DNA of 30,552 nt from NCBI GenBank assembly GCA_964569725.1, contig CAZMUE010000001.1:1-30552 (forward strand). Direction: 5' to 3'. Source of the DNA: an uncultured Gammaproteobacteria bacterium. Its GTDB lineage: Bacteria; Patescibacteriota; Microgenomatia; UBA12405; CAZMUE01. Positions 4,094-27,713 of this stretch are shown here, piece by piece (the stretch's first letter is position 1; the number at the start of each line of letters is the position of its first letter). The position numbers and the translations under genes were made by a program. The notes below the pieces were generated by a model, which saw only the letters and a list, made by a program, of their open reading frames with translations, had not been told where the DNA came from and made no database searches.

Positions 4094-4094
4094 G

Positions 4095-9471: not shown

Positions 9472-12257
9472 TTCACAAAATTCCTGTCCGGCTGATAATC
9501 ATTGTCCTAATTTTAGCTCCTTTTTATAACGTCATCTTCCTGAACAAAACCCTATCTTCCTCACCCATCGCTCCGGGAACTTTTCCTAGTGGTCCCCTGG
9601 GAAGGGTATCAAACTGGGAAGGTATTAAAGAAACCTCTTATATGGATGTCGGTGCTTTTGCCTGGATAGACGAACCACTTACGCTCCTGGCTGGAAAATC
9701 ACTTAAAGAACGCAAAAGTCTTCTATGGAATCCGTATATTGGCTCATCCGTCCCCCTTATGGCAGAACTTCAATCGTCAATTTTCTTCCCTTTAAAAATA
9801 ATCATTTACGCTTTACCAAAAATTATTGCCTGGGATATTTTTTTAATTGTTAGACTTTTGATTTCGTCTCTTTTTTGCTACTTATACTTCAGGAAAATTA
9901 AGCTCTCCAGGGTCGCCGCAGTTTTTGGAACGATTTCCTTCTCGCTCTCTGGATATTTTTTGTATTATATCAACCTCTTCCATCTGAACTTAGAGCTTAT
10001 GATTCCTATTTTCTTCTTCGCTGCCGAATTGATAATAGAGAAATTTAATTCCACAAGGTTATTATTTCTCTTCCTAATCTCCCTCTCTTCCGTTTTTACA
10101 GGAATGTTCGAAAGTCTTCCGTTGATCTGGGGGATTTTTTGTCTTTACCTCATCGCAAAAACTATTCATATTGGCAAACAAAATGGAACGAAATATTTCC
10201 AAAAAATCATTATCGTTCTTGCAACTATGATCAGTGCTATTATTACAGCCAGTTTTTACATTATTCCCTTTTTGGAATATCTTCAGAAAACAAAAACCAT
10301 TCACGAACACTCCGTAGGATTGGGCTATATTCCCCTTAAAACAGCTATCTCCATCTTTATCCCTTTCTTTTTTGGGCCCCTTAACGGCTCCTGGAATAAA
10401 ATGAGCTCTACGGCAATTTTACCCTATCTTGGTTTTATCCCAGTTGGATTCGCATTAACAACTTTTTTCATTAAAGAAAGCAAGCATTTGATTTTCAGGG
10501 GCATTTTTTCTTTTATCGCCCTCCTTTGTTTTCTGAAAATCTTTGGATTCCCTCTTGTTAATTGGATTGGAAATATTCCGGGTTTTAATGTAATTATCTT
10601 TACTAAATATCTCGTCCCCATAGCCGCTTTTTCTATTTCTTCTTTGGCAGCAATTGCTGTAAACTCCTTACAGTCAAGCAAAAAATTTCCTCTGGCAATT
10701 TTCTCTATTCCCGTCTTCTTTATTACTATTGTCTCAATCTTCTATTTTTTAAACAAAATCAACGCCTATGAAGCGGGCTATTCTAAATACCTTGAGAGAG
10801 AAATCTTTTTCGCTTCGACCATCATCATCGTTTTCACTGCTTTCCTGATTATCAAGATAATAAAACCAAAAACAAATAAAATTATGCGCAAGCTCTTTGT
10901 TATCGCCCCTCTCTTTATTTTGTTGTTTGAGTTTTATCAACATGGATTCAGACTTTCTAGGGGCAGGGCAGAGAGGATGGACAGTTATAAAACCCCCGAC
11001 TTCATTGAATTCCTCAAAAAGGATCCGGAAAAATTTCGTGTATTTGCCATAGATCGAATCCTATATCCCAACACCGCGGTCGCGTATGGCATCGAGGATA
11101 TCAGGATAATTGATCCATTAACTCCAGGCGATTATTTGAGATTAATTGCTGCAACAATCGCGCCAGGCGTTAGAGAAAGATTTACCGGCGACGAATGGGA
11201 AAAACCAAACATTTCCGCAAAAGCACTGGATCTTTTGAACGTTAAATATGTCATTTCTATGAAAGATATCTTTAAAACGTTAGCCATTGACGAAATTCTT
11301 TCTAAGGCAACTATCAATGTCCCCCAAAAGGACTACGTCGGTAAAAGTTCATATTCTATAAATGGAGAAGAAAAAACCATTTTATTTGCCCATGCTCCTG
11401 CGGAAATCAAATTCAAAAAATTAATTGATTCAGAATCAACGAAAATGAGTTTTAGTTTGGGAATGAACCCAAGTCTTTATGATTCTAAATTCGGAGATGG
11501 CGTTGGATTTAGCATTTTTGTCAATACTCAGAAAAAGAAAAACCTTTCCGTTTTTGCAAAGGTTATCGACCCTAAGAATCGACAAGAAGACAGAATTTGG
11601 CATAACCACGAAATTAACCTTTTTCCTTACCTTAACAGTGAAATCGAGATCATCTTGAAAACCAATCCTCTTAAGAATAATGCTTATGATCAAATTGGCT
11701 GGGGGGATATCAGCTTCGATGACGAATCAAAAATGCAAAGGTTTAGTCTCGTCCACCAATCGAATGGAGTTCGCGTCTACGAAAACAAAAATTATCTTCC
11801 TCGGGTTTTTTTTGTTGACTCTGTTGAGAAAAGAAATAAAGAAGACATTCTTAAATTATTAAACGAAGAAACCATTGACTATCAAAAAACTGCCTTTGTC
11901 GAGGAAGATTTTCCTAGAAACTATTTAGAGAATGATCCCATTGTTTTTGAAGGCAAGGCAACTATAAAGAGCTATAATCATACCAGGATAGAAATATCGA
12001 CAAACATTAGCCAAAACTCATTTTTGATCATTTCTGATAATTATTATCCCGGCTGGAAAGTCTATTTAGACGGGAAAGAGGGGTACGTCTACAAAACAAA
12101 CGTTACCCTCAGAGGTGCTTTTGTTCCAGCTGGTACTCAGGAGGTTGTTTTCATCTATAAACCGAAATCATTACGATACGGAATAATGATCTCTCTAGCC
12201 GGATTATTATTCTTTGTAATCTGCAGAAGAATCGCGTCTCAAAGTGAAAGTAGATAG
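9450..12257 (+). CDS. YfhO-family membrane protein (GT-C glycosyltransferase) with an inserted extracytoplasmic beta-rich domain
   Basis: LLWNPY...P..AELQSSIFFP, FRVFAID..L.PN....YGI, LLNVKYVIS, ENKNYLPRVF and DNYYPGWKVYLDG...LRGAFVPAG.QEV.F.Y.P are YfhO hallmarks. Confidence 0.85.
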   Translation: MRFFKKLIHKIPVRLIIIVLILAPFYNVIFLNKTLSSSPIAPGTFPSGPLGRVSNWEGIKETSYMDVGAFAWIDEPLTLLAGKSLKERKSLLWNPYIGSSVPLMAELQSSIFFPLKIIIYALPKIIAWDIFLIVRLLISSLFCYLYFRKIKLSRVAAVFGTISFSLSGYFLYYINLFHLNLELMIPIFFFAAELIIEKFNSTRLLFLFLISLSSVFTGMFESLPLIWGIFCLYLIAKTIHIGKQNGTKYFQKIIIVLATMISAIITASFYIIPFLEYLQKTKTIHEHSVGLGYIPLKTAISIFIPFFFGPLNGSWNKMSSTAILPYLGFIPVGFALTTFFIKESKHLIFRGIFSFIALLCFLKIFGFPLVNWIGNIPGFNVIIFTKYLVPIAAFSISSLAAIAVNSLQSSKKFPLAIFSIPVFFITIVSIFYFLNKINAYEAGYSKYLEREIFFASTIIIVFTAFLIIKIIKPKTNKIMRKLFVIAPLFILLFEFYQHGFRLSRGRAERMDSYKTPDFIEFLKKDPEKFRVFAIDRILYPNTAVAYGIEDIRIIDPLTPGDYLRLIAATIAPGVRERFTGDEWEKPNISAKALDLLNVKYVISMKDIFKTLAIDEILSKATINVPQKDYVGKSSYSINGEEKTILFAHAPAEIKFKKLIDSESTKMSFSLGMNPSLYDSKFGDGVGFSIFVNTQKKKNLSVFAKVIDPKNRQEDRIWHNHEINLFPYLNSEIEIILKTNPLKNNAYDQIGWGDISFDDESKMQRFSLVHQSNGVRVYENKNYLPRVFFVDSVEKRNKEDILKLLNEETIDYQKTAFVEEDFPRNYLENDPIVFEGKATIKSYNHTRIEISTNISQNSFLIISDNYYPGWKVYLDGKEGYVYKTNVTLRGAFVPAGTQEVVFIYKPKSLRYGIMISLAGLLFFVICRRIASQSESR

Positions 12258-13174
12258 TCCCAGGTTTTTCTAATCCCCAACAAAAGATCGACCTGAGGAG
12301 TCCAATTAAACTCTCTGCGAAAACGAGAAATGTCTAAAATAATAGACCGAATATCGCTCGACCTCGCCGGAAGATATTCGGGATTAATTGATCTTTTTGT
12401 TACTTGCCTCATTAAATCAATGAGTTCGTTAAGAGTCGTTCCTTTACCACTCCCTAAGTTATAAATACTTTTCTTTGTCTTTTTCTTAAAAGAAACGGCA
12501 ATTCCTTTTATTAAATCAGAAATGTAAATGTAATCCCTTTTGTTTTCGCCATCACCAAAGATAATCGGCTGCTTGCCCTCTTTAATCATATTAAGGAAAA
12601 TAGGAATTACACCTTGCGTGCCAATAACATTTTGCCTCGGGCCATAAGGATTAGAAGCCCTAATAATCAAATGGTCTAACCCTTCCTTGACGCGAAAATA
12701 CCCTAAATATCTTTCTATTGCCAGCTTATTGATGGCATAAGGAGAAATTGGATAGGCAGCATCATCTTCCCGATGTAAAGATTTTTCATTCTCGCCGTAA
12801 ATCGCCCCTCCAGAAGAGATAAAGATAACTTTTTTTACTGATTTTTCTGAAGATAATAATTTGAAAAGCTCTAGCGAGCCCTTTAGGTTTGTTTCAATAT
12901 CAAATAAAGGATCTGCCATTGACGAAGCTGGATTGGTAGTTGAAACTAAATGAAAAACATAGTTAAATCCCTTAACAGCCTTACGAAGACTGTCCGTTTC
13001 TAAAAAATCGCCCTTGAATAAATCTACCCTCTGGGAAAGATGATCCACATTGATCGCCTTATTGTTTTTGAATCTGTCAAAAATTCTTACTCTATATTTC
13101 TCTGCTACCAATCTCTCTGCAAGATGGCTGCCAATAAAACCATCACCGCCTAAAATCAAACATTTATCTTTCAT
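12239..13174 (-). CDS. NAD-dependent epimerase/dehydratase (extended SDR, UDP-glucose 4-epimerase-like)
   Basis: GGDGFIG Rossmann motif, SSGGAIYG, YAINK (YxxxK), NPYGPRQ and RDYIYISD. Confidence 0.92.
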   Translation of the reverse strand: MKDKCLILGGDGFIGSHLAERLVAEKYRVRIFDRFKNNKAINVDHLSQRVDLFKGDFLETDSLRKAVKGFNYVFHLVSTTNPASSMADPLFDIETNLKGSLELFKLLSSEKSVKKVIFISSGGAIYGENEKSLHREDDAAYPISPYAINKLAIERYLGYFRVKEGLDHLIIRASNPYGPRQNVIGTQGVIPIFLNMIKEGKQPIIFGDGENKRDYIYISDLIKGIAVSFKKKTKKSIYNLGSGKGTTLNELIDLMRQVTKRSINPEYLPARSSDIRSIILDISRFRREFNWTPQVDLLLGIRKTWDYLLSL

Positions 13175-14495
13175 CTTTATCCTTGATTAATTTTCTATAA
13201 ATATTCTCTACCGCCTTTGCGTTATCTCCAATCGTAAACGGTTTTTTCATTTTTGCGGCCATAGCCGAAATTAAAGACGGATCACTAATAAATCTTAACA
13301 TTTTATCTTTTAACTCTCCTACATTATTGATCTCAAAATCAAAGCCGTTAACTCCATCTTTTACCAAATAAGTCATTCCTCCCAATCTAGTTACAATCAG
13401 AGGCGTTTTTGCTAAAAGTGAATTCTTGATAACTAGGGGGGCGTTCTCAAACCATCGAGATGGCACGATTAAAACATCTATTTTCTTAAAAACCTCACTA
13501 ATTTCATCCGCCGGAAAAGTTCCTAAAGAAGATATCCTTTTGTCCGCAATAATCGCTCTATTGATTTTAGCTCCATATATATCTTCTTTTATTTTCCCCC
13601 AGATCATGAGGCGAATGTTCTCGTTTTTTATTTCACTGAAAGCATCTAAAACAAGATCAAGCCCCTTTGAAGCAACAATAGAACCAATAAAGCCAAAAGT
13701 TAATCTTTTCCGCATAACCGGATATTTTTTTTCAAACCCTTCAAAGTAGCACTCCTGAATACCATCGTCTATAAATTTAATTTTATTTTTGCTTATACCC
13801 CATTTAACAAATTCGTCTCTTAACATCGGTGTTGGCGCTACAAATAAATCAATTCCTCTGATGAGTCGCTTAAATTCTTTATTTCTCAAAACAACTAATC
13901 TTTTGTAGAATTTTTTTGAGCAGGCAAAAATTACCCTCTTTAAAAAATTGTTTCTCAGCTGGAGGATTTCCTTTCTTGGAGAAACTATCCCCTCAAAATC
14001 CTGATCAATCATCTCATCCAATATACACCTGGCACAGTCAACCGAACGAAAATCATAACAAACGCGTCTTCTGTTTATCAATCTCTTGTGGGTTAGGCAC
14101 TGGATCCAAAAATCATGTAGCGTGTAGACTTGAGGTATGTGTCTTTCTCTGGCGATATTAGGAAATTCTATGGAAAAAAACATCAAATGATGATAATGAA
14201 TAATATCTGGCTTGAATTCATCAATTGTTTTTTCAAAAAAAGGAATCGTCCCCAGATCATTATAAGATTGCTCAAAAGTGCAATAATGCCGCACATCTTT
14301 ATCGAGAGTATAACAATCCAGCCCCTTATATCGATTTATTTTGACTTCATAAGTCCCCTCGCCTAAAGGATTAGTGGTAAAGATAAGAACCTTGTGTCCC
14401 CTCTTCTGTAACTCTTTCCCCAGTTCAAAAACGCAAATTTCTGTTCCCGAGAAATATTCTGGAAGAAAATCGTGCACTACTAATAGAATTTTCAT
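13164..14495 (-). CDS. GT4 (GT-B) glycosyltransferase with a 4-Cys insertion
   Basis: MKILLVVHDF.P...SGTE, PDIIH.HH, TLHDFW.C, FIGSI...KG.D and IVPSRWFENAPLV. Confidence 0.88.
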   Translation of the reverse strand: MKILLVVHDFLPEYFSGTEICVFELGKELQKRGHKVLIFTTNPLGEGTYEVKINRYKGLDCYTLDKDVRHYCTFEQSYNDLGTIPFFEKTIDEFKPDIIHYHHLMFFSIEFPNIARERHIPQVYTLHDFWIQCLTHKRLINRRRVCYDFRSVDCARCILDEMIDQDFEGIVSPRKEILQLRNNFLKRVIFACSKKFYKRLVVLRNKEFKRLIRGIDLFVAPTPMLRDEFVKWGISKNKIKFIDDGIQECYFEGFEKKYPVMRKRLTFGFIGSIVASKGLDLVLDAFSEIKNENIRLMIWGKIKEDIYGAKINRAIIADKRISSLGTFPADEISEVFKKIDVLIVPSRWFENAPLVIKNSLLAKTPLIVTRLGGMTYLVKDGVNGFDFEINNVGELKDKMLRFISDPSLISAMAAKMKKPFTIGDNAKAVENIYRKLIKDKDER

Positions 14496-16966
14496 TAGAC
14501 CTTTGCTCCTAGATAATCTGCTACTATTGCCATCTTTTTGTCATTATTCTTGTCTTTATTGCCCATAAAAAACTGCGCTAGTAAGGAACCCCCTGCCAAA
14601 CCCAGCGCATTTTCGACAAAAACAAGACGTTCTTCACGAGAAAGCTTAATCCTCTTTTCGCCTATGAAATTGAAAAAGCTTGTCGAAACATACCTTAAAA
14701 CCGTTTTTATTGAAGACAATACCCTTCGTATATCTGCCTCTTCGCAGCTCGTTCGCTCGAAAGCATTCCTCACTGGATGCAAGAAACTGCTCCAACGAGT
14801 TTCTCTTTTTTCTTCCTTTAGATCGTCAAGTCTCAAATCAATCAGGCCTCGCAAATCCACTCTATTGCTTCTGACAACCCATCTCTTGAGCCATCGGCTA
14901 AGCGAGGGGATGATCATAGTCAATGCCAGAATTTCTTCTTCTGTTGTTTCGCCAATATTGGGGTTCTTGCCTAATATTTTTTCAAGGGCTAGGCTTTCCA
15001 CAAAGGCTCTCTTAAAATGATAAGTTGCATCTCTTTCGTGAGAATGAGAAACCCAAGCAGAGGCTAATAAACCAATTCTTTTTTTATTGGCCAAAAGTTT
15101 CATCGACATAAGGGCATCTTCTGCAAATTCAATTTCGTTAGAAAATTTAATCTTCGAAAATTCTTTTTTGTTATAGATCGAAAAAACGTCGTCAATCAGG
15201 CAATTTTTTCTTTTTTCAAAAAATCCAAGACCCTGCGGATCAATTTCCTTACCATCAATAATCTGGTCCCCACCTTCGGGATTAATAAAATCATAATGAT
15301 TGTGCATTTGCCATTGAGAAAATGGCGAAGCTCCGCTCCTGGGTCGCTGAATCGGCGAAGCCGCCGCCAAAGAATTGACTTTCATAAAATTAATTATTTT
15401 ATTAAGCAAATTGTCCATTTCTGGAATCGCATCTTGAACAGTGAAGAGAAAGTAATCACCTTTAGCAAGACTCGCGCCCAGATTTCTAGTTTTCCCATGG
15501 CCAAACTCTGACGGCTTAATTTTAATAACCCTACAGCCAAACTGTCTCGCTATTGCCGTAGTTCTGTCAGTTGACCCGGAGTCAATAACAATAATCTCCG
15601 TTCTTTTAACCCCTCTTTGCTTTTTGAGAAAAAGCAATACCTTAAAAAAATCGTCTCCGGCGTTTAATGTAGGAATAATCACCGAGACCATCTCCCGAAC
15701 TGGATCATCCCCGGGAATAGCCACAGGAGATCTTCTCTTCTTAACGAATGGTTCCAGCATCATCCGCTTTAGAACATTAAATTTCTGCCAGGCCCTAAAG
15801 GTTTTCGCAGAAATTATATTATCTAACTGATTCTTAAGAATTTTTAACTCCTCTTTGCTATTAATGAGCTGAACCTCTCTCCTAGAATGATTCTCTCTGA
15901 GTCTCTGCAATTGCAAATCCCTTCTCTTAACGGCAGCATCCAAGGCTACAATTTTCCTCTTTGCCGCTTCTAGCTCGTCTGCAATGAGATTCAACTCTTC
16001 CGTATCCATCTTTAGCTTTCGCACTTCACGATCCAAAATATCTTTCTCTTTTTCAAGAACACTTTTCTGTTTCCCAAAAGCCTCTATGCTTAAATCCTTT
16101 TCAATGTTAACCCTAGTTAAACCTTTCAAATGAGAAAATAAGTCTGCCCCCTCGTAAATCACCTTTTCATAAGAAAAATTCGTTCTTATATTAGGATCTG
16201 AGTAATCATAGACGTAGCGTTGAAAATTCTCTTCTTTCCTCTGGAAATTAATCAGCAATTTTCGATTTAAGTCGTTAAAGGCCATACTCCACCATTCTTC
16301 AAAAATCAACAGGCCTGGTTCGACGAAATTAACCATTCTCTTGCCGGAAAATTTTCTTAAAAGCGGCCCTATTTTATTGGCTAAATAGAAAAGATATCGG
16401 TATTTAACAAAATCTCTCTCTATGGGAAAATCAAAAATCCATTCACAGTCAATAAAGAGAGGCTTATCTTTTGAAATGATTAAATTATCAGCAACGATAT
16501 CCAAATTTGCAGTCTTGATAAAATAACTCGGCAAAACAGGATTAGCCAAAAATACCTCCCTATACTGTTTCAGGTTTGTAAATTGGGCTAAGGCGTCTAA
16601 ACGAAAACAAGGAAGCCCCTCAATAATTCTCAAGCCTAAAGAAAAGTGCTCTGACGCTTTAGCGAAATCTTTCTCTAGAAGAAAATCACTGATGTTCTTT
16701 TCCAAATTATAGTCGCTAATAAATGAATACTGTATACCAGAACCACTCTCTACCAATTTACCTCGCAAGACTTTCCCTGTTTCAGCGATGAAGTTTTGCC
16801 ATTTTTCTTCATTCTTAAGAATACCTCCCAAATGACGCCTTGATTCTGGTGATAGCGCCTTTTTAAAAACCAGTCGTCTTCCCGATCTTTCCTCTATAGA
16901 AGTTAGAATTCTAAATTTCTCCTTCCGGCTCGCCACCGTTTTTGCGTATAAAACTTTATTCATCAT
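14495..16966 (-). CDS. Multidomain protein: kinase-like domain (aa ~1-255), coiled coil (~289-386), GT2 (rhamnosyltransferase-like, ~426-650)
   Basis: VFKKAL, NLDIVADN (D-x4-N) and IDCEW are ePK/APH-like. A heptad-rich E/K/L stretch ends in SAKTFRAW. GT2 motifs are VIIPTLNAG, IDSGSTD, HGKTRNLGA, TVQDA and AED. Confidence 0.78.
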   Translation of the reverse strand: MMNKVLYAKTVASRKEKFRILTSIEERSGRRLVFKKALSPESRRHLGGILKNEEKWQNFIAETGKVLRGKLVESGSGIQYSFISDYNLEKNISDFLLEKDFAKASEHFSLGLRIIEGLPCFRLDALAQFTNLKQYREVFLANPVLPSYFIKTANLDIVADNLIISKDKPLFIDCEWIFDFPIERDFVKYRYLFYLANKIGPLLRKFSGKRMVNFVEPGLLIFEEWWSMAFNDLNRKLLINFQRKEENFQRYVYDYSDPNIRTNFSYEKVIYEGADLFSHLKGLTRVNIEKDLSIEAFGKQKSVLEKEKDILDREVRKLKMDTEELNLIADELEAAKRKIVALDAAVKRRDLQLQRLRENHSRREVQLINSKEELKILKNQLDNIISAKTFRAWQKFNVLKRMMLEPFVKKRRSPVAIPGDDPVREMVSVIIPTLNAGDDFFKVLLFLKKQRGVKRTEIIVIDSGSTDRTTAIARQFGCRVIKIKPSEFGHGKTRNLGASLAKGDYFLFTVQDAIPEMDNLLNKIINFMKVNSLAAASPIQRPRSGASPFSQWQMHNHYDFINPEGGDQIIDGKEIDPQGLGFFEKRKNCLIDDVFSIYNKKEFSKIKFSNEIEFAEDALMSMKLLANKKRIGLLASAWVSHSHERDATYHFKRAFVESLALEKILGKNPNIGETTEEEILALTMIIPSLSRWLKRWVVRSNRVDLRGLIDLRLDDLKEEKRETRWSSFLHPVRNAFERTSCEEADIRRVLSSIKTVLRYVSTSFFNFIGEKRIKLSREERLVFVENALGLAGGSLLAQFFMGNKDKNNDKKMAIVADYLGAKV

Positions 16967-17889
16967 TTTTTGACAAAGAATAGAAAAGAGTTGGCAAATT
17001 CTACTAATAAGCCCGCATCTTTCAGGGTTTTGGCAAACAGAACCTCGTTGATTAAGTAGAGCCGTTCTGTGAAAGGTCCTCCTGTCGGAAAAATAGAATT
17101 GATTCCAATAGTATCTAGGCTCCTCAAAAAACCACTCTCTAAAACCTGAATTGGTAGTTTATAGTCAGGAAAGGGTAGATATAGCGAAAAATCGCTAAAA
17201 CCTGCTTGCTTTAAAATTCTTACCATATCTCCCAAGGCGAAAGTCCTTATTCCCATATAGTCTGGGTAATCTTCTAAGGATTGATATCCTATAGAGTAGT
17301 GATCTTCGTAGAACCCTGAAAAATATTTCACGCCAAGTTTATTTTCTATGGCAATAATCAATATCCCCTCTTCTTTCAAAAGCGTTCTGCATCTTTTTAA
17401 CATTTTAAGATAGGGCACAAGAGAATATCTGCTCTCGTGTGTTTCTCCAAAGAAAGCGCCCGCATATTCTAAAACACCGATCAGAGTCACGAAGTCGAAT
17501 TTCTCTTTACAAGAAAAGGTAGCAAAATCTCCAACGACGACTTCTAAATTCTGTTTTTCTTTAAATCTCCTTCTGATAATTTCTGCTCTTCTTTCCTCTA
17601 GCTCTAAAGCAACTACCTTTTCGCATCTTTCACAAAATAATCCAGTCAAGGCGCCGCACCCGGCACCAATTTCTAAAAGGCTCTTCTTCTTGCCAAAATC
17701 AAACCAGTTTAAAATGGCATGTCTCTGGGGGGAAAGATGATATAAAACTGGCCAGGATTTATGCAAGAATTTCGCGATTGCCTTTACCTGTTGAGATTCG
17801 CTTTTATCCTCAAAAAGTCGCAGAAGAATCTCCTCGGCATTATCTTTATATTCCTTTTTATCTCCTCCGCTTACGTCTTTTGTTGCCAT
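16963..17889 (-). CDS. Class I SAM-dependent methyltransferase (glycan O-methyltransferase-like)
   Basis: LLEIGAGCGALTG motif I, FDFVTLIGVLEYA, IIAIENKLG.KYF.G..EDH and PFPDYKLP. Confidence 0.87.
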   Translation of the reverse strand: MATKDVSGGDKKEYKDNAEEILLRLFEDKSESQQVKAIAKFLHKSWPVLYHLSPQRHAILNWFDFGKKKSLLEIGAGCGALTGLFCERCEKVVALELEERRAEIIRRRFKEKQNLEVVVGDFATFSCKEKFDFVTLIGVLEYAGAFFGETHESRYSLVPYLKMLKRCRTLLKEEGILIIAIENKLGVKYFSGFYEDHYSIGYQSLEDYPDYMGIRTFALGDMVRILKQAGFSDFSLYLPFPDYKLPIQVLESGFLRSLDTIGINSIFPTGGPFTERLYLINEVLFAKTLKDAGLLVEFANSFLFFVKK

Positions 17890-19100
17890 TGGTGTTTTTC
17901 CAAAACCACTCCCCTAGAAAATAGTAATGATCTTACCTCTAGCTCTTTTGCTCTGTGTAAAAAATGGTAAGGGCTCGCCTCGTCATTGCCGTAAGCAGCA
18001 ATTCTTAAGTAATACTTACCAGCGTTAAGGCTTAGCTCTGGAAACGATAAGCTCACATTTCCGCTTTTTTTGTTTGTCTTGATCCTAAAACCATCGAAAT
18101 CTGTCCCGAGACCAGAAACATAAACACCATCCTCTCTATAAATGCCCAAAGAAAACTTTAGTGTCGCTATCTTCTTTACAACCCTATAGTTAATCCCTAC
18201 CCTTAACAGCTCTCCTGATCTTATTAGCTTGACTTCGTTATTCCTATGGTCGAGAAGTTGAACGTTTTTTATCAGAACTTCTCCGCTCCCCCATTGTTCA
18301 AAACCATCGGGATGCCCCTCTTTATCTTTACCCTCGCCCATCTCTTTTAGTCTTTCCTTTTTATAAAAGAATTTTTCATAATCCAAAATCGTTTTTTCTA
18401 CAGAAGAAATTTCCGTCGCCTTACCTTTATTAAGGAAAATTCCTCTATCACAAAAATTTAGAATTAAGTCCATAGAATGAGAAACTAAAATGATAGTTTT
18501 GCCTAACGACCTTAAATGATGGAATTTAGATAGACATTTGGCCTGAAAAGCTCTATCGCCAACTGCCAAAACTTCATCTACTAATAAAATGTCGGCATCC
18601 GTATTAACGGCAATGGCAAAACCGAGTCTGGCATACATCCCAGAGGAATAGCGCTTAACCGGCTGAGTAATAAAATCCCAAAGCTCAGCAAAATCAACAA
18701 TTTCTGTGAATTTTTCGTCTATTTCTTTCTTAGTTAAACCAAGAATTGAACCGTTGAGATAAATGTTCTCAGCGCCAGTTAAGTCGGGATGGAAACCGGC
18801 CCCCAGTTCAATCAGGGGAGAAACCCTACCGTTAACGACGATTTTTCCCTTGTCTTGCCTCGTTACTCCGGCGATTAACTTTAAGATTGTTGACTTGCCA
18901 GCTCCATTGGGTCCGACGATGCCTATTGCCTCTCCTCTTTTTATTTTGAAAGAAACATTTTTCAGGGCCCAAAGTTCTTTTCTCGCCTCTCTTTTTTTGA
19001 TTGCGGCCGGAACCAGCTCCTTTAAAGTCCGATGAACCTGCAGACGATAAAGCTTGCAAACGCTATCGAACTCTATGGCAAAACCATTTGTTCTTTTCAT
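17871..19100 (-). CDS. wzt: Polysaccharide ABC exporter ATP-binding subunit with C-terminal carbohydrate-binding (Wzt_C) domain
   Basis: Walker A GPNGAGKST, signature YSSGM, Walker B LLVDEVLAVGD and H-loop VSHS. A ~150-aa C-terminal beta domain (GSGEVLI...LNAGKYYL) follows. Confidence 0.93.
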   Translation of the reverse strand: MKRTNGFAIEFDSVCKLYRLQVHRTLKELVPAAIKKREARKELWALKNVSFKIKRGEAIGIVGPNGAGKSTILKLIAGVTRQDKGKIVVNGRVSPLIELGAGFHPDLTGAENIYLNGSILGLTKKEIDEKFTEIVDFAELWDFITQPVKRYSSGMYARLGFAIAVNTDADILLVDEVLAVGDRAFQAKCLSKFHHLRSLGKTIILVSHSMDLILNFCDRGIFLNKGKATEISSVEKTILDYEKFFYKKERLKEMGEGKDKEGHPDGFEQWGSGEVLIKNVQLLDHRNNEVKLIRSGELLRVGINYRVVKKIATLKFSLGIYREDGVYVSGLGTDFDGFRIKTNKKSGNVSLSFPELSLNAGKYYLRIAAYGNDEASPYHFLHRAKELEVRSLLFSRGVVLEKHQWQQKT

Positions 19101-19867
19101 GCAACGTCTGCGAATTTTCCTGCTAACCTCTTAAAGAGTATCCAGCCGATCAGAAAAACTCCCGAAGAAAGCAATAGGGCAATTCCTAAATGTAGCCAAT
19201 CAGGTTGTCCTGCTCCCAAAATAACCTGACGATAGGCGTTAATTAAAACAGAAATTGGGTTCAAAGAAAGAACGGTTCTTAACTCAAGAGGAACTGCCTC
19301 TACCGGGTAAACCACCGGCGTTAGATAAAATAAAATCACCAGAACTAACCCCATCAAATGTTGCACGTCTCGGTAAAATAAGTTTAGAGCAGAAATCAAA
19401 AGACCAAGTCCAAAAGTAAAGATAAGCTGAACAAGAAAAATGAGGGGAACTATTAAAAGATCAAGAATCAGGTTCGTGGGTTGCCTGAAAATAATCATAA
19501 AAAAAACAAGGACCAAAGAAGCCAAAGCAAGATCCACAGTTTTCGCTAGAATTGTTGCCAGAACAATTAATTCCCTGGGGAAATAAACTTTCTTAATCAA
19601 AACACTCATGTTGACGAGTTCTCCCATCGAAGAGGTCAAAGAATTAGCGAAAAAGGTCCATGGCAACAGACCAACATAAAGAAAAATCGGGTACGGAACC
19701 CCAGGAACAGAAATTTTCATGATTCTGGAAAAAACTAGGGTCATAACCAACATTTGCAAGAAGGGGTTAAGAATTACCCAGAAGTAACCCAAAACCGATT
19801 GTTTATATCTGCCCGCAATCTCTCTTTTTATTAGGTTCGACAGAAGATCCTTATGATTTTGCTTCAT
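19097..19867 (-). CDS. wzm: Polysaccharide ABC exporter permease (ABC-2)
   Basis: RYKQSVLGYFW..LNP, GLLPWTFF, IKKVYFPRE, YRDVQH, FYLTPVVYP and LNPIS.LI..YR, with 6 TMs. Confidence 0.93.
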   Translation of the reverse strand: MKQNHKDLLSNLIKREIAGRYKQSVLGYFWVILNPFLQMLVMTLVFSRIMKISVPGVPYPIFLYVGLLPWTFFANSLTSSMGELVNMSVLIKKVYFPRELIVLATILAKTVDLALASLVLVFFMIIFRQPTNLILDLLIVPLIFLVQLIFTFGLGLLISALNLFYRDVQHLMGLVLVILFYLTPVVYPVEAVPLELRTVLSLNPISVLINAYRQVILGAGQPDWLHLGIALLLSSGVFLIGWILFKRLAGKFADVA

Positions 19868-19873
19868 TTCGGC

Positions 19874-20944
19874 TTAACTATTATATACTCTCCGAACATC
19901 CTTTATCCAGGATAAGCCAATTTTAATGACATCAAATTTAAAGGGCAAATAAGGGTTATGCTTAAATACCCGTTTATCGTTGATTTTTCTGTTTCTCTGC
20001 GCCAATCTCCTAGATGATCGGTACTTTCCTAAAATTAATTTTATGAAAAAATTAATTATCCCCACCAGCTTCGCCATAGTAATTTTGGGCGAAATCAAAA
20101 GATATCCCAAAGAGAAAACGGTTCTAGAAGCTATCAAGGGGAGAAATAGCAAAATAAATACTCCTAGGGATAGATTTTTATAATAAACGGTAAGAAGATT
20201 GGTTTCTGTCTGGCTTAATAATCTTAAAGAAAGCTTTTTATCGGGCGAAGACCCGTGTCCCCAATGAAATACTCTCGCTCTAGGATTAACCACAATTTGT
20301 TCTCCGCCCAGGAGAATACGCCAAGATAAATCAACATCTTCAAAATACATAAAATAATCCGGATCAAAAAGACCATATTTTTTAAAGACCGCTACTCTTA
20401 TCATCATCGCCGTAACTAAACCGCTGAAAATCGAAAATTCTTCTTGCCTATATTCCTTTGGAATTTGTGTTATCTTTTCTCCACCAAGAAAACCGACAAA
20501 AACACCAAAAAAAAGATTACGAATCGCCCCGCCAGCAGAATCGATTGTTTCTCCTTGCCAATCTAAACTCAAGCTGGCGCAGATAGCTATCTTATTATTC
20601 TTTTCTAGAGTTTTTAAGGATTCTTGCAGCCAATTTCTATCTGCTCTGACATCAGCATTCATCAGAGCGATTCTCTTAAATCCTTGCCCTATTGCCTTTT
20701 TAATCGCCTGGTTAAAAGCTCTGCCCACGCCAAAATTGTGATTATTTTCAATCAGTTTAAAGGGGACTCTGTGTTCTCTAGAGGCTATTTCTCTTAAATA
20801 ATTTTTACTTTTATCTTGGGAATTATTATCTATTACCCAAACTTCATAGTTTTCAGCTGTCTGATTAAAAAGAGATTTCAAGCATTCTGGCAGGAATTTA
20901 TAACAATTGTAGTTTAGAACAATAACAACAGTTTTATTTTTCAC
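19874..20944 (-). CDS. GT2 glycosyltransferase (WbbL/RfbF-like)
   Basis: VIVLNYN, IDNNSQD, N.GVG.AFN, MNAD and FDPDYFMYFEDVDLSWR. GTG start overlaps the upstream TGA. Confidence 0.87.
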   Translation of the reverse strand: MKNKTVVIVLNYNCYKFLPECLKSLFNQTAENYEVWVIDNNSQDKSKNYLREIASREHRVPFKLIENNHNFGVGRAFNQAIKKAIGQGFKRIALMNADVRADRNWLQESLKTLEKNNKIAICASLSLDWQGETIDSAGGAIRNLFFGVFVGFLGGEKITQIPKEYRQEEFSIFSGLVTAMMIRVAVFKKYGLFDPDYFMYFEDVDLSWRILLGGEQIVVNPRARVFHWGHGSSPDKKLSLRLLSQTETNLLTVYYKNLSLGVFILLFLPLIASRTVFSLGYLLISPKITMAKLVGIINFFIKLILGKYRSSRRLAQRNRKINDKRVFKHNPYLPFKFDVIKIGLSWIKDVRRVYNS

Positions 20945-22155
20945 TTTCTTTTGACCAGGAAAACGAAAAGTCTAATAATAAAAAGCCAGAAGAAGATTAA
21001 GAAGATCAGGTGGGTTGTTAGAGCTGTCTTTGTTAATCCGAAAAGAGGAATTGCTGTTCCCAATCCTTGACTGGCAAAAGCTAAATCCACTGAGGCAGAA
21101 TTGAGAATCTTTTGGGAAACGAAGCCAGGAATCAACCAAAGGAACATTGATGGAAAAAAGAAACTGTAAAACGAAGCCATTGCTAGGCAGGCAAAAAAAG
21201 AATAATAAATCGCCATTTTGAGGTCTATGATGATTAAGAAGGGCAAAATCCAAACAAGATATTGGGAAGAAATGCCGCCGTAAAAGAGGTAGAAAGCAGT
21301 GAAAATTATTGTCCAGGCAAAAATCAAATCCTTTTTCTTTTTTATCAGCCAGAGAAAAAGAAAACCGTAGAGCGCCAAGAAACCAATCTTATTCCAAGAC
21401 AAAAGAGTTCCGAAACCATCAATCGCTAGAAATGCTTGCCCATGACTTAACCAATTGATCGCCCTAATGATTGCCATCCAACCAAAATCAGTAATTCCTG
21501 AATAGCCAAAAATATATTTAGCTGAACCTAAAGAATATTTAAAAAGAAAAGGCAAAAGAATCAGAAATATAGGAAGGGCTGACCAGAAAGCAAAGATTAT
21601 TTTTTCTTTAATCTTTTTCTTTTTAAGCAAAAAAACAGGCCCTATTAGGACCGGAAAGCTCTTGAGAGCAATTCCCAAACCAAGGGAAAAGGGACTAAGC
21701 CATTTCTTAGGAGAGCGGAAAAATTTAATAGCCAAGAGAATCGTTAAAATCACAAAACTGTCAAATTGGCCATGAAAACCGGTAACCAGAATGGAAACAG
21801 GATTGAGGCTATAGAACAAAGCAGAGACAAACCTAAGTTTTTTATCTTTAACCAGCTGATAAATCAATAAACAAATCAAGATGTCTGCCAAAATCATCGG
21901 CACTTTTATCACTAATTGAAAGGGAAGGTGAAAAAATTGTCCTAAAGAAAAAGCCCCTGCCCCCCACCATAACCAAAGGGGTGGATTGGAACAAACTCCA
22001 CTCAAATAAGGATCGTCTCCTTTGAAAATAAGTTCATTAACAACAAAAGAGTTTTTAAGATCACCACTAACCGGCGTTATCACTGCCGGAATGAATCTTA
22101 AAACAATGGTTAATAAAATCAAAAGAATAATCTTTTTCTTTTCGCTAATTTCCAT
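20941..22155 (-). CDS. GT87/DUF2029-like GT-C membrane glycosyltransferase
   Basis: SGDL...NPPLW, KVPMILAD, LNP.SI...GFHGQFDS, LGIALKSFP and SSQYLVWILP, with about 10 TMs. Confidence 0.78.
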   Translation of the reverse strand: MEISEKKKIILLILLTIVLRFIPAVITPVSGDLKNSFVVNELIFKGDDPYLSGVCSNPPLWLWWGAGAFSLGQFFHLPFQLVIKVPMILADILICLLIYQLVKDKKLRFVSALFYSLNPVSILVTGFHGQFDSFVILTILLAIKFFRSPKKWLSPFSLGLGIALKSFPVLIGPVFLLKKKKIKEKIIFAFWSALPIFLILLPFLFKYSLGSAKYIFGYSGITDFGWMAIIRAINWLSHGQAFLAIDGFGTLLSWNKIGFLALYGFLFLWLIKKKKDLIFAWTIIFTAFYLFYGGISSQYLVWILPFLIIIDLKMAIYYSFFACLAMASFYSFFFPSMFLWLIPGFVSQKILNSASVDLAFASQGLGTAIPLFGLTKTALTTHLIFLIFFWLFIIRLFVFLVKRK

Positions 22156-22808
22156 TATTTCTGAGCAATCAATAAAAGCTCTTGCCCCAGTTTTTTAATA
22201 GGCAGAAAGACTGGTTTTATTATAGAGGGTTTTACTTTTTCTCTTAAAGATGGGGTTGGCGGAAAACCAAAAGAAAAAATATGCTTGATCTTCACGCGAC
22301 TAAAACCAATATTCCTTAGATTTAAAAGCCAATATTGCTGATCCCAAACATTAATATGGGTTTGATCTTTATCCTTAAAGAATTTCCTCAATACAAAGGC
22401 AGCGTTGGGAGTAGTAGCGTAAAACAAACCCCTTTTCTTTAATCTTTGATAAATGAATTTCAACATTCCCTGGTCATCTTCCAAATGCTCTAGGACATCA
22501 AAAGCAGTGATAGCATCGAAAGTTTTTCCCTCAAAAAAGGAGAAATTGCTCCTAATCTTAGCCTTGGTGAATTTCTTTGCTTGGCTAATGGCGTATTCGG
22601 AAATCTCTAAACCATAAGTTTTGATCCCCTTTTCATCGCAAAGACCGAGGAAATAACCAAAACCGCAGCCAATATCTAAAATCCTCCTCGCCCTCTTCCT
22701 TTTCAAAATCTGTTTTAAATGATAGCTAAAAATATCTCTTCTCTCTTTATTAAATTGATAGCCAGCTGACTGGTTGGCAAAATAGCTTTGATCATAAGGG
22801 GCTTTCAT
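22155..22808 (-). CDS. Class I SAM-dependent methyltransferase
   Basis: ILDIGCGFG, GLEIS.YA, FDAITAFDVLEHL and ATTPN. Confidence 0.9.
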   Translation of the reverse strand: MKAPYDQSYFANQSAGYQFNKERRDIFSYHLKQILKRKRARRILDIGCGFGYFLGLCDEKGIKTYGLEISEYAISQAKKFTKAKIRSNFSFFEGKTFDAITAFDVLEHLEDDQGMLKFIYQRLKKRGLFYATTPNAAFVLRKFFKDKDQTHINVWDQQYWLLNLRNIGFSRVKIKHIFSFGFPPTPSLREKVKPSIIKPVFLPIKKLGQELLLIAQK

Positions 22809-23806
22809 GGTTTTATTCTCCTTAATTTTAAAATTAGAGAAAGAATCTTTTCTTTATAATTATCAACCATTAGCCGCAAGAATTTTCTGGGAATAATGAT
22901 GGTTCCCAGACTGCAGAACCAAAAACCAAGATTAAACAGATTTCTCGGTCTCTGTTTCGCTAAGATCAAAATCTCTTTAAGCAGATTCTTAAAAGAGCCA
23001 TAGTTTTTTATCTGCACTAGACCAATATAATGAGTAGTGATCTGGTCAATGCCGGTTTTCCTCACTTTTTCATATCTCTCGCCTTGGTAAACATCTTTAA
23101 ACATCCTTACCCAACTCTCGGTCGGAGAAATATCGTAAATACCTGATTTAAACCTGGTCTGACTACTCTTAATCCTAACCGCGACGGTGTAATCTTTTAG
23201 AAAAACAACCTTATGTTTTTTGGTAATCGAGGCGAAGGGATAAATATGGGCCGGGAAGGTATCGGTATGAAAATCGCGATCTAAATTTTTTACCCGATAG
23301 GCTAAACCGGAAAGCTGGCCAACGGAGCCAAAAATACTTCTTACCTCTTTTGGGCCATCGAAAACAGAAATTACCCTATCTTTCTCTCTATCATAAGGCA
23401 TTATGGCCCTAACCGGTCTTTTTGAATCTTCATCAAACCAATAGAAGGGCCGGGTCACTGCTCCGATATCTTTATCCAAAAAGAAAGCGTCATGGGTCTT
23501 GCGTAAAGCATCTTTTAAAAGGAAATCGTCTTGGGCCATTAAAAAGAGAAGATCAGAATCAACCATTTTCCTTAAAACCTGGAGATTGGCGCCATAGCCT
23601 AAGTTCCCAGGATTCCTGTGTATTTTGATTCGCCTATCTTTAAAACTCTTAATTGACTCTACAGTATCATCAGTCGAGCTATCATCAGAAACGATCATTT
23701 TAAAATCAGTTAAGTTTTGGCTCAAAATGCTTCTTATGGTTTCTTTGATCCATTGACTACCGTTATAAGTGGGCATGGCAATAGTTAAGCTTAATTTTTT
23801 ACTCAT
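22805..23806 (-). CDS. GT2 glycosyltransferase
   Basis: AMPTYNG, VSDDSSTDDT, NLGYG.N and MAQDD. Confidence 0.87.
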   Translation of the reverse strand: MSKKLSLTIAMPTYNGSQWIKETIRSILSQNLTDFKMIVSDDSSTDDTVESIKSFKDRRIKIHRNPGNLGYGANLQVLRKMVDSDLLFLMAQDDFLLKDALRKTHDAFFLDKDIGAVTRPFYWFDEDSKRPVRAIMPYDREKDRVISVFDGPKEVRSIFGSVGQLSGLAYRVKNLDRDFHTDTFPAHIYPFASITKKHKVVFLKDYTVAVRIKSSQTRFKSGIYDISPTESWVRMFKDVYQGERYEKVRKTGIDQITTHYIGLVQIKNYGSFKNLLKEILILAKQRPRNLFNLGFWFCSLGTIIIPRKFLRLMVDNYKEKILSLILKLRRIKP

Positions 23807-25762: not shown

Positions 25763-26209
25763 CTAGTAGCCCACAAAACTTTTTAACGAAAAGCCATTTA
25801 AGAGTCTATAGCTGAAAAAATAGGCCAAAGGGTGATGGCGGAAAGAGAAATTATCAAAGGCAATATGGAAAAAATAAGATAAAGCCAAAACCCAATTGAG
25901 ATTCTTTATCCCTAATTTATTACCCAACGCTTTACCTATTAAAAACATCAGCGGAATGAATTCCCAGCCGTGAAAAAAGATATAGGCTTTCTGCGAAGGG
26001 CCGACATAATTCTCCACGTTAAGAAATTCTACTAAGTCAAAAGAGATTCCGGCATGAAGCCAATAATCAAACCAGTGGTCGACATCAATGAAAAAGCCTA
26101 CCAGAAAGCTAGCCAGAACCAATCGCCAATCTCTGGCCTTTTTCCAAAAGAAAAAGGCCACTAATCCCGATAATGAGAAATGGATAATTTCATGAGCCAA
26201 AAGATCCAT
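25763..26209 (-). CDS. Small membrane-bound putative metal-dependent hydrolase (YdjM-like)
   Basis: HEIIH (H-x3-H), DVDH, FFHG and HIAFD (H-x3-D) lie in or near TM helices. Confidence 0.62.
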   Translation of the reverse strand: MDLLAHEIIHFSLSGLVAFFFWKKARDWRLVLASFLVGFFIDVDHWFDYWLHAGISFDLVEFLNVENYVGPSQKAYIFFHGWEFIPLMFLIGKALGNKLGIKNLNWVLALSYFFHIAFDNFSFRHHPLAYFFSYRLLNGFSLKSFVGY

Positions 26210-27702: not shown

Positions 27703-27713
27703 CTAATCAAAAT

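Follow-up and report, generated by a model that had tools for sequence, protein, structure and literature searches.

On the minus strand of the DNA analysed here (30,552 nucleotides, hereafter the window), six translationally coupled genes form one operon. These are wzm (19097..19867), encoding the 256-aa ABC-2 permease of a glycan exporter (Pfam ABC2_membrane, E 2.8e-19); wzt (17871..19100), encoding a 409-aa ABC ATPase with a C-terminal carbohydrate-binding module (ABC_tran, E 1.1e-22); a gene for a stand-alone, terminator-type SAM methyltransferase of 308 aa (16963..17889; Methyltransf_11, E 2.6e-9); the open reading frame (ORF) of an 823-aa protein (14495..16966; Glycos_transf_2 at aa 428–561, E 1.7e-18); a gene for a 443-aa GT4 glycosyltransferase (13164..14495; Glyco_transf_4 and Glycos_transf_1, E ~1e-22); and a gene for a 311-aa NAD-dependent sugar-nucleotide epimerase/dehydratase (12239..13174; Epimerase, E 2.2e-50). 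They were assigned to a single operon because their junctions overlap or abut, with overlaps of 4 nt (wzm/wzt), 19 nt (wzt/methyltransferase), 4 nt (methyltransferase/823-aa ORF, in the form ATGA), 1 nt (823-aa ORF/GT4), and 11 nt (GT4/epimerase). The first four genes had been named in a preliminary description of this DNA, including the C-terminal binding domain of Wzt; an ORF check recovered all four (4/4) at the same positions on the minus strand, and the Pfam assignments agreed.

Upstream of wzm, on the same strand (19874..20944), lies a gene for a 356-aa GT2 glycosyltransferase with about three hydrophobic segments (PF00535, E 8.2e-28), which probably belongs to the same pathway as the operon. 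Its match to an NCBIfam rhamnosyltransferase subfamily (E 9.8e-15) was under the cut-off, as were the matches of the epimerase to the NCBIfam GalE and dTDP-glucose dehydratase models. The GT4 enzyme is a candidate second polymerase or adaptor glycosyltransferase (GT). An initiating phosphoglycosyl transferase was not recognised among the genes of the window, which also holds three further methyltransferase genes.

The features of the exporter were all present, with PF01061, PF00005, and PF14524 above their gathering cut-offs, while the NCBIfam Wzm/KpsM-type matches of Wzm were under theirs. The best solved relative of Wzt was the 404-residue ABC-transporter chain of PDB 8dku/7k2t (E 6.6e-69, aa 29–390), which we take to be full-length Aquifex aeolicus Wzt. 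This alignment spanned both the nucleotide-binding domain and the C-terminal module, whereas the Wzt_C module by itself (Wzt aa 269–390; 17931..18296, minus strand; PF14524 E 1.1e-21, 77.8 bits vs. a cut-off of 30.4) was too divergent to give a significant pairwise match to solved PDB chains, and the ligand specificity of the Aquifex protein is therefore not transferable to it. In characterised systems a Wzt_C module goes together with recognition of a terminal cap (Kelly et al., 2024; PMC11231755), and the module in the window is a predicted reader of the chain-end cap.

Domain architecture of the 823-residue protein

The N-terminal domain of the 823-aa protein (aa 1–255; 16202..16966, minus strand) is a predicted glycan-terminus kinase, as suggested by AlphaFold2, Foldseek, residue conservation, and HHalign. 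The AlphaFold2 model of this segment (pLDDT 89.7) confidently predicted an aminoglycoside/choline-kinase-type fold. Its best Foldseek match was APH(3')-Ia (4few; E 1.7e-6, probability 1.00, TM 0.43–0.53), followed by choline and ethanolamine kinases; the probability was also 1.00 for 4r7b, 2qg7, and 3q2j, with LicA and ethanolamine kinase among these matches. The domain has in common with these enzymes the features of a bilobal kinase fold, namely the beta-3 lysine (K35), the D-x4-N loop (D156-IVAD-N161), and the metal-binding Asp (D173). It differs from them in its low sequence identity (10–14%), in TM-scores to solved kinases that are only moderate (the same 0.43–0.53), and in its substrate, which is predicted to be the end of a polymer. 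The preliminary description had anticipated a kinase fold for aa 1–255, which the structural matches bear out, and had listed K35, K36, D156, N161, and D173 as catalytic residues. Alignment of 151 members of the family showed K35 (0.99), D156 (0.97), N161 (0.97), D173 (0.99), E175 (0.99), and W176 (0.95) to be near-invariant, together with R14, T22, and R190; K36 was not conserved.

The kinase fold was not revealed by sequence alone. No APH model of Pfam matched the domain, neither Pfam nor NCBIfam names it (no NCBIfam model was above cut-off), the kinase-family profile retrieved nothing from the PDB sequences but coiled-coil proteins and, below significance, GCN2 and CDKL2, and a phmmer search of the same sequences with the 823-aa protein returned GT2 enzymes only. 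The family was collected by an exhaustive search with aa 1–293, a word-indexed search with the whole protein having given mostly GT2-only matches. It comprises more than 1,200 protein clusters at 50% identity, with 20–38% identity between kinase domains.

The kinase domain is followed by a low-confidence linker of 46 residues (aa 256–301; 16064..16201, minus strand; pLDDT <50 for aa 265–304 in the full-length model), in which AlphaFold2 placed no folded Ig-like module, and then by a coiled coil (aa 302–386; 15809..16063, minus strand). AlphaFold2 predicted helices at aa 302–317, 322–386, and 388–408, and the hydrophobic a/d periodicity exceeded that of 5,000 shuffled sequences (p = 0.0006 for aa 322–386 and p = 0.0014 for aa 302–386), with a shift of heptad register near aa 318–321. 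The segment is 44% charged and contains no Pro or Gly. Since the AlphaFold2 run was that of a monomer, it is the heptads that point to an oligomeric coiled coil. The preliminary description had delimited a heptad stretch of about 98 residues (aa 289–386) and derived from it a ruler of 14–15 nm. The coiled coil itself holds, while its N-terminal boundary was set about 13 residues too far out, and a predicted molecular ruler of about 85 residues, or ~12.6 nm, is better supported. Many relatives carry very short coiled coils (~20–40 residues), so that a ruler role would not be universal in the family.

The heptad stretch ends, as described earlier, in SAKTFRAW (aa 386–393) and is followed by a GT2 domain. 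Between the two lies a basic helix (aa 388–412; 15731..15805, minus strand; helical at aa 388–408, net charge +8), at whose position both kinase families keep an S-x-S-W-R/K motif that is degenerate in the window. The entire 823-aa protein showed no transmembrane segment, and the basic helix is a candidate membrane-proximal anchor. The GT2 domain (aa 423–665; 14972..15700, minus strand; PF00535, E 1.7e-18) was modelled with pLDDT mostly >90 as a confident GT-A fold and is predicted to act as the polymerase at the ruler's base. Its fold resembles those of polymer-modifying GT-A enzymes, with PcManGT, TarS, TarP, RmlT, WrtF, and K4CP among the Foldseek matches (E 7e-12 to 1e-9), and it has the active-site-type motifs DSGS and QDA in common with its homologues. 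In the homologues P0002–P0005 the same GT2 subfamily is located after coiled coils. The protein closes with a helical region (aa 666–823 and the stop codon; 14495..14971, minus strand; pLDDT 34–58), and P0002–P0005 likewise terminate in G-V. An origin of the kinase-GT2 fusion in an assembly or frameshift artefact was rejected because nothing interrupts the ORF, the same methyltransferase occurs in a separate Logan assembly ahead of a product of 444 aa or more, and the kinase–coiled coil–GT layout recurs in several relatives.

Relationship of the methyltransferase and kinase to ORF6-O7

ORF6 of the Klebsiella pneumoniae O7 locus joins a methyltransferase, a kinase, a coiled coil, and a pair of GT2 modules in one polypeptide; it was shown biochemically to add methyl-phosphate, phosphorylation being complete and methylation incomplete in vitro, and a D441A substitution abolished phosphorylation (Kelly et al., 2024; PMC11231755). 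The K. pneumoniae systems have their terminator at the N-terminal tip and their GT at the C-terminal base, and it is the hallmark of such terminator-ruler systems that the modifying enzyme is distal on the coiled coil and the GT proximal (PMC11231755).

Comparison of the window methyltransferase with ORF6-O7 (phmmer, Z = 1e6) gave 130 bits and an E-value of 6.6e-36 over ORF6 aa ~55–322; the ORF6 sequence consisted of the N-terminal 444 residues re-typed from the OCR'd SI Fig. 9 of that paper and ended at the D-x4-N motif. Residues Y50, G75, G77, E96, and Y142 correspond to ORF6 Y66, G91, G93, E112, and Y158, each shifted by 16 positions, and the full length and donor-binding residues are common to the window enzyme and the phosphate-methylating ORF6-O7 domain. 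These sequence matches strongly support the gene just upstream of the 823-aa ORF as a stand-alone version of the ORF6-O7 methyltransferase, which is predicted to methylate a terminal phosphate. Its Pfam matches were to class I SAM methyltransferase models, and no NCBIfam model was above cut-off. Identity among relatives was 40–54%, and the closest named relatives were Microgenomates (candidate phyla radiation). A search with the window methyltransferase yielded 1,821 clusters (90% identity), the best 120 of which were all stand-alone proteins of ~300 aa, and a search with ORF6-O7-N yielded 4,668 clusters, the best ones being fused methyltransferase-kinase proteins. The search for related loci with the methyltransferase turned up one weak Omnitrophota locus.

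The kinase domain matched the kinase domains of ORF6-O7-N homologues in HHalign with 99.2% probability (E 1.6e-19, 208 columns), and a partial ORF6 orthologue alignment with 93–95%; identity to the O7-type homologues was ~19% over the aligned HHalign columns. The kinase-family HMM also detected full-length ORF6-O7-N homologues (47–62% identical to ORF6-O7-N; E 1e-11 to 1e-13), in matches that span the D-x4-N, D-x-E-W, and R190 motifs. The K. pneumoniae O7 protein itself was not among the homologues listed, the best match being 56% identical. Against the OCR'd, truncated ORF6-O7 orthologues the family HMM gave no significant score (−2 to 5 bits). ORF6 D441 lies in F-I-D-A-V-P-Q-N, which aligns with L-D156-I-V-A-D-N of the window. 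Judged by these alignments, the methyltransferase and kinase of the window are homologues of the ORF6-O7 methyltransferase-kinase terminator.

Gene arrangement ties the two enzymes further. Kinase and methyltransferase are fused in 17/150 family representatives, with the methyltransferase in front, and a further architecture, kinase–coiled coil–GT without a fused methyltransferase, also accounts for 17/150. The split, two-gene arrangement of the window recurs in five related loci, in all of which (5/5) the gene with the kinase domain lies directly downstream of the methyltransferase gene (E 1e-58 to 1e-76). Fusion in some members and adjacency in the five sampled loci indicate a functional link between methyltransferase and kinase. 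A Wzt with a Wzt_C module adjoins the pair in three of the five loci (P0020, Woykebacteria, and Daviesbacteria), and Wzt is absent within 7 kb in the remaining two.

Proposed mechanism and alternative explanations

The operon probably serves the ABC-transporter-dependent assembly of a glycan with a methyl-phosphate cap and a coiled-coil ruler, as an O7-type system with its modules redistributed. The glycan would grow on a lipid carrier at the cytoplasmic face through the action of the GT2, which would lie where the coiled coil is closest to the membrane, with the coupled GT4 and the upstream GT2 as likely contributors to its synthesis. The 823-aa protein would oligomerise through the coiled coil and hold the kinase about 12–13 nm from the polymerase. 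Once the growing end reached the kinase, a hydroxyl of the terminal sugar would be phosphorylated, with D156 as catalytic base and N161 and D173 binding Mg-ATP, and the phosphate would be methylated by the methyltransferase, a separate protein that probably docks on the kinase. The resulting cap would stop extension and act as the ticket for the Wzt_C module, upon which Wzm-Wzt would export the chain. Several points count against this best explanation: the cap chemistry is borrowed from a homologous protein at ~19% kinase identity over aligned HHalign columns, the family HMM was not significant against the re-typed ORF6 fragments, the TM-scores are moderate, two of the five related loci are without Wzt within 7 kb, the coiled coils of many relatives are short, and the window shows no recognisable initiating phosphoglycosyl transferase.

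The cap could instead be a simple O-methyl group, the kinase-like domain being a catalytically silent scaffold that positions the methyltransferase. The methyltransferase is far better conserved (40–54%) than the kinase domain (20–38%), it is a separate protein, and three other methyltransferase genes are present in the window. However, all the residues that phosphotransfer requires (K35, D156, N161, and D173) are 97–99% conserved across 151 members, which would be unexpected for a pseudokinase, the homologous ORF6-O7 domain is an active kinase, and the methyltransferase is of the phosphate-methylating ORF6-O7 type; we regard a methyl-only cap as distinctly improbable. Another explanation accepts an active kinase and moves the methyltransferase to a sugar hydroxyl or elsewhere, leaving either phosphate alone as the cap or phosphate together with a separate O-methyl sugar. 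That ORF6-O7 methylation remained incomplete in vitro while phosphorylation was complete is compatible with such a cap, as is the lack of a covalent link between the two window enzymes. The full length and donor-binding residues in common with the ORF6-O7 domain, and a gene pair that is strictly adjacent or fused, argue for methylation of the phosphate and make this explanation very unlikely.

A role outside termination appears unlikely as well. Under this explanation the pair would decorate internal residues or another substrate, the coiled coil would serve for oligomerisation or as a scaffold only, and chain length would be set otherwise. It would account for the two of five related methyltransferase-kinase loci that have no nearby Wzt_C transporter and for the coiled coils of ~20–40 residues in many family members, and the experimental tie of the family to termination is limited to K. 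pneumoniae O7. Against it, the pair is contiguous with wzm-wzt and a Wzt_C module in the window, P0020, Woykebacteria, and Daviesbacteria, and the window protein shows the hallmark layout of a terminator-ruler system.

Microgenomates are not known to have an outer membrane. As they are the nearest named relatives, a glycan linked to the wall or an S-layer is a likelier product of the capped, ruler-controlled pathway that we favour than an O antigen. More tentatively, the surface glycan of an LPS-free Microgenomates-type bacterium may be length-controlled and methyl-phosphate-capped by a split terminator, with the kinase at the tip of a coiled coil fused to a polymerase GT2 and the methyltransferase recruited in trans, the 823-aa protein having arisen by fusion of a stand-alone kinase of ~305 aa with a GT2 of ~450–495 aa and expansion of the coiled coil. 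This fuller scenario is plausible rather than probable; if true, the locus would be a natural example of evolving ruler length and module linkage.

The hybrid design put forward in the preliminary description is not new, since terminator, ruler, and polymerase in one chain were already published for K. pneumoniae O7 ORF6 (PMC11231755) and kinase–coiled coil–GT proteins without a fused methyltransferase are common in the family (17/150); the locus adds no new principle. It would extend a proven strategy, consisting of a cap, a coiled-coil ruler, and a cap-reading transporter, beyond enterobacterial O antigens to a very large, mostly unannotated family, and naming the kinase domain would improve the annotation of thousands of glycan loci. 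The split between methyltransferase and kinase raises the question of how an untethered methyltransferase finds the chain end. To our knowledge, almost nothing is known about the envelope of ultra-small candidate-phyla bacteria, and the context of the locus hints that they make length-defined, capped surface glycans.

Comparison with known terminators

The window resembles ORF6-O7 in combining a homologous methyltransferase with an atypical aminoglycoside-kinase-like kinase that keeps the catalytic Asp, in placing the terminator N-terminal to the coiled coil and the GT2 C-terminal to it, and in an ABC-transporter-dependent pathway. It differs in that the methyltransferase is a separate polypeptide, an Ig-like carbohydrate-binding module lies between kinase and coiled coil in O7 and none in the window protein, two GT2 modules are present in O7 and one in the window protein, the window kinase has an extra helix (aa ~43–57) that is absent from the O7 type, and the likely host of the window is without LPS.

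WbdD (Escherichia coli O9a/K. pneumoniae O3; PMC3482155) is likewise a kinase and methyltransferase that produce a methyl-phosphate cap, with a coiled coil that sets chain length and a Wzt-C that reads the cap. It carries no GT of its own and recruits WbdA as a separate polymerase, whereas the window GT2 is fused after the coiled coil. Descent from a WbdD-like enzyme was not borne out, and assignment to the WbdD family was rejected on the profile searches of PDB sequences and on Foldseek. WbdD was missing from the matches of the kinase-family profile at E ≤ 10, was not among the best 60 of 85 PDB matches (E ≤ 1) of the methyltransferase-family profile or in the phmmer search with the methyltransferase, and was not among the best 50 Foldseek matches of the kinase domain. 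The resemblance to WbdD is functional only and not by descent; the O7-type kinase, too, is unlike WbdD in sequence and predicted structure (PMC11231755).

WbbB (K. pneumoniae O12/Raoultella terrigena; PMC11231755) also unites terminator, coiled coil, and polymerase GTs in a single polypeptide, but its terminator is a GT99 Kdo transferase, whereas the N-terminal domain of the window protein is predicted to have a kinase fold. Pfam gave no GT99 or Kdo-transferase signal in the window. Methyl-only terminators, which a simple O-methyl cap would resemble, are found in E. coli O8 and in the Geobacillus S-layer glycan. WsaE of Geobacillus stearothermophilus reportedly places its 2-O-methyl group on rhamnose directly, without a kinase; it is said to join a cap-adding methyltransferase with GT modules in the ABC-transporter-dependent synthesis of a non-LPS S-layer glycan, in which it would resemble the window system, and to differ from it in lacking the kinase that the window has.

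Genomic setting of the operon

The operon comprises six genes on the minus strand: wzm (19097-19867; Pfam ABC2_membrane), wzt (17871-19100; ABC_tran and, at aa 269-390, Wzt_C with E 1.1e-21), a gene for a 308-aa methyltransferase (16963-17889; Pfam class I SAM methyltransferase models), an 823-aa ORF (14495-16966; Glycos_transf_2 at aa 428-561), a GT4 (13164-14495) and an epimerase/dehydratase (12239-13174), with a start/stop overlap of 1-19 nt at each junction. The first four had been named in the preliminary description and were confirmed by the ORFs and Pfam matches. Wzt aa 29-390 aligned with the 404-residue ABC-transporter chain of PDB 8dku/7k2t (E 6.6e-69), presumably full-length Aquifex aeolicus Wzt; the Wzt_C binding module by itself was too divergent for ligand inference.

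Outside the operon, the window forms a large glycan island with more GT2 and GT4 genes. Three additional SAM methyltransferase genes (22155-22808, minus, Methyltransf_23; 27714-28355, plus, Methyltransf_24; 11-418, plus, 5'-truncated) suggest a heavily methylated glycan, and a 514-aa B12-binding radical SAM enzyme encoded amid glycosyltransferase genes (26190-27734, minus) may serve in sugar C-methylation or other sugar tailoring. Five genes encode large polytopic membrane proteins that could act in extracytoplasmic glycosylation or ligation: two without a Pfam or NCBIfam match (959 aa, ~18 hydrophobic segments, 5772-8651, minus; 585 aa, ~10 hydrophobic segments, 4014-5771, plus), a YfhO-like (935 aa, 9450-12257, plus), a GT87-like (404 aa, 20941-22155, minus) and a PMT_2+TPR protein (608 aa, 28375-30201, plus). 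Genes for a HAD/PNK3P-type phosphatase (411-1040, plus) and a transaldolase (1060-1821, plus) lie at the left end. Two minus-strand ORFs (23799-25019 and 24899-25759) share 121 nt; the longest-ORF rule has probably given the downstream GT4 an artefactual GTG start (25019), the real one likely lying further in.

Genes for lipid A, core or Kdo were not seen in the window. Its proteins were present in a metagenome run assembly, and the named close relatives of the methyltransferase (40-54% identity) belonged to the Microgenomates-group Woykebacteria, Daviesbacteria and Woesebacteria. These relatives, along with the YfhO-like and other GT-C-like membrane proteins, suggest that the host is a candidate-phyla-radiation bacterium. 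Such bacteria are not known to have an outer membrane or LPS.

Kinase domain, coiled coil and following helix

The N-terminal ~290 residues of the 823-aa protein had no match among Pfam or NCBIfam models, and an exhaustive search with aa 1-293 matched 1,243 protein clusters (E <= 0.001). In a 151-member alignment, R14, T22, K35, D156, N161, D173, E175, W176 and R190 were 95-99% conserved, a set that contains the beta-3 lysine, D-x4-N catalytic loop and metal-binding Asp of a kinase. The kinase-like residues proposed earlier (K35, D156-x4-N161 and D173) were thus retained, except for K36, which was not conserved. The AlphaFold2 model of the domain (60-sequence alignment) had a mean pLDDT of 89.7 and a pTM of 0.86. 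The kinase fold anticipated in the preliminary description was borne out by Foldseek against the PDB, with APH(3')-Ia as the top match (E 1.7e-6, probability 1.00, TM 0.43-0.53), followed by choline kinase LicA, ethanolamine kinase, APH(3')-IIIa, corramycin phosphotransferase, N-acetylhexosamine kinase and some protein kinases. WbdD was absent among the 50 best Foldseek matches, and the kinase-family profile retrieved from all PDB sequences no WbdD, only coiled-coil proteins and sub-significant GCN2 matches.

The full-length AlphaFold2 monomer model (pLDDT 78.5) showed a disordered linker (aa 265-301), helices at aa 302-317, 322-386 and 388-408 and a confident GT-A domain at aa 423-665, with no Ig-like module between kinase and helix. 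The predicted helices and a hydrophobic a/d periodicity that stood out significantly from 5,000 shuffles (aa 322-386, p = 0.0006; aa 302-386, p = 0.0014) agree with the coiled coil expected before the GT2. The segment is 44% charged, lacks Pro and Gly and shifts register near aa 320; its 85 residues at 0.148 nm each correspond to ~12.6 nm.

No transmembrane segment was found in the 823-aa protein. A motif (N/S)-S-x-S-W-(R/K)-x-T-x-P-(L/I)-R positioned immediately behind the coiled coil was shared by the window kinase family, the ORF6-O7-like methyltransferase-kinase family and unrelated coiled-coil GT proteins (database homologues P0002-P0005, P0112, P0119, P0131, P0350 and P0375 among the carriers), and in stand-alone terminators it lay 15-25 aa from the C-terminus. 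The copy in the window (15767-15817, aa 384-400) is degenerate (IISAKTFRAWQKFNVLK) and runs into a basic helix (aa 388-412, net charge +8). This element may be membrane-proximal, a candidate for docking to the membrane or to the polymerase.

Relationship to the O7 terminator and to other loci

In ORF6 of Klebsiella pneumoniae O7, a methyltransferase is followed by an AmiN-like kinase that had not been annotated before, an Ig-like CBM, a coiled coil and two GT2 domains; in vitro the protein adds methyl-phosphate to the terminal rhamnose at O-3 (Kelly et al. 2024, PMC11231755). The authors note a flexible distribution of modules and orthologues with and without C-terminal GTs, and describe the methyltransferase-kinase pair as unlike WbdD in sequence and predicted structure (PMC11231755). 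The window methyltransferase matched aa ~55-322 of the ORF6 sequence, as re-typed from OCR text, with 130 bits (E 6.6e-36; E-values of local searches refer to a database size of Z = 1e6, or are pairwise HHalign values). The donor-binding residues named for ORF6 in that paper, Y66, G91, G93, E112 and Y158, correspond, at a constant offset of 16, to Y50, G75, G77, E96 and Y142 of the window protein, and the C-terminus of the latter (…EFANSFLFFVKK) falls just beyond a conserved (A/S)-N-S-F-L motif that in ORF6 precedes the kinase domain.

Six orthologues of the N-terminal methyltransferase-kinase part (ORF6-O7-N) were re-typed from the OCR'd supplementary alignment (PMC11231755), giving incomplete, error-containing fragments of ~440 residues each that end at the D-x4-N motif. 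Against these truncated fragments alone the kinase-family HMM was not significant, and profile-profile comparison gave 93-95% probability. With 120 full-length relatives (47-62% identity to ORF6-O7-N, mostly ~600-aa methyltransferase-kinase-coiled coil proteins), the window-family HMM gave matches of E 1e-11 to 1e-13 that span the D-x4-N, D-x-E-W and R190 motifs in the C-lobes of their kinases, and HHalign of the window kinase (aa 5-255) gave 99.2% probability (E 1.6e-19, 208 columns). Given this homology, both enzymes belong to the ORF6-O7 terminator lineage and not to that of WbdD. The WbdD-based interpretation was largely right about function, but the resemblance to WbdD is one of analogy, not of relationship. 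The fused family (including homologues P0299-P0418) is very large, with 4,668 clusters at E <= 1e-10 and members in Pseudomonas, Nitrosospira, Leptospira interrogans and Methylococcales among others; it is annotated at source only as "class I SAM-dependent methyltransferase" or "UbiG-like", the kinase domain being unannotated everywhere.

The methyltransferase and the kinase probably form one functional unit. Of the 150 best family representatives, 17 had a homologous methyltransferase fused immediately N-terminal of the kinase, and a kinase-domain gene (E 1e-58 to 1e-76) directly followed the methyltransferase gene at all five other loci on which the synteny is based: the metagenome contig of homologue P0020, Ca. 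Woykebacteria GCA_001816635.1, Ca. Daviesbacteria GCA_016186955.1, a MAG labelled Deltaproteobacteria and a Logan contig. Contiguous wzm-wzt with Wzt_C was present at three of the five, and the P0020 and Daviesbacteria loci share the order Wzt, methyltransferase, kinase with the window. At the Woykebacteria locus, a Methyltransf_23 gene also follows wzt. The Woykebacteria (L005 8912-9838) and Daviesbacteria (L010 7978-8892) kinases are ~305 aa long with a coiled coil of only ~25 residues, and a separate GT2 gene lies nearby in an otherwise similar operon (495 aa, L005 12828-14315, 34% identity to window aa 383-672; 444 aa, L010 9866-11200). The 823-aa protein therefore resembles the product of two such stand-alone genes that have fused, with an expanded coiled coil. 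Kinase-coiled coil-GT fusions are not rare: C-terminal tails exceeded 300 aa in 17 of 150 kinase-family representatives, and all four scanned carried GT2 or GT2+GT1 modules. Directly after the kinase-coiled coil-GT gene of the P0020 locus, genes for a nucleotidyltransferase, GHMP kinase, HAD phosphatase and SIS isomerase (L001 11124-14139) resemble a pathway to heptose nucleotides, a hint that heptose may occur in the glycans.

Proposed mechanism and comparison with known systems

The domain architecture and the fold are established, as are the conservation of the catalytic residues, the homology with a proven methyl-phosphate terminator and the coupling of the genes to those of a Wzt_C transporter. 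In the mechanism we propose, the GT2, with the coupled GT4 and an upstream GT2, would elongate a lipid-linked glycan at the membrane, while the coiled coil would oligomerise and keep the kinase ~12-13 nm away. Once the chain spans this distance, the kinase would phosphorylate the non-reducing terminal sugar, and the separate methyltransferase, probably kinase-bound, would methylate the terminal phosphate. The cap would stop extension, and its binding to Wzt_C would license export by Wzm-Wzt. As a whole, this mechanism is fairly probable. Among its main rivals, a non-terminating decoration and a methyl-only cap with a silent kinase are unlikely, and a phosphate cap without phospho-methylation is very unlikely.

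The closest solved relatives of the GT2 domain (PcManGT, TarS, TarP, RmlT, WrtF, K4CP) are polymer-modifying or polymerising GT-A enzymes, and the same subfamily follows coiled coils in proteins with a distal GT2, LmbE+GT2 or Methyltransf_24 domain, a placement that fits a putative plan of polymerase at the base and terminator at the tip. Window D156 (L-D-I-V-A-D-N) corresponds to ORF6 D441 (F-I-D-A-V-P-Q-N), and phosphorylation was abolished in ORF6 D441A (PMC11231755).

A phospho-methyl cap combined with a ruler and polymerase in one chain, put forward earlier as a hybrid design, is already known, having been published in 2024 for K. pneumoniae O7 (PMC11231755). The differences here are that the methyltransferase and the kinase are separate proteins, the two being fused in all orthologues described in the SI Fig. 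9 analysis of that paper, that the 823-aa protein lacks a CBM and has one GT2, that its kinase subfamily is divergent, and that the likely host is free of LPS.
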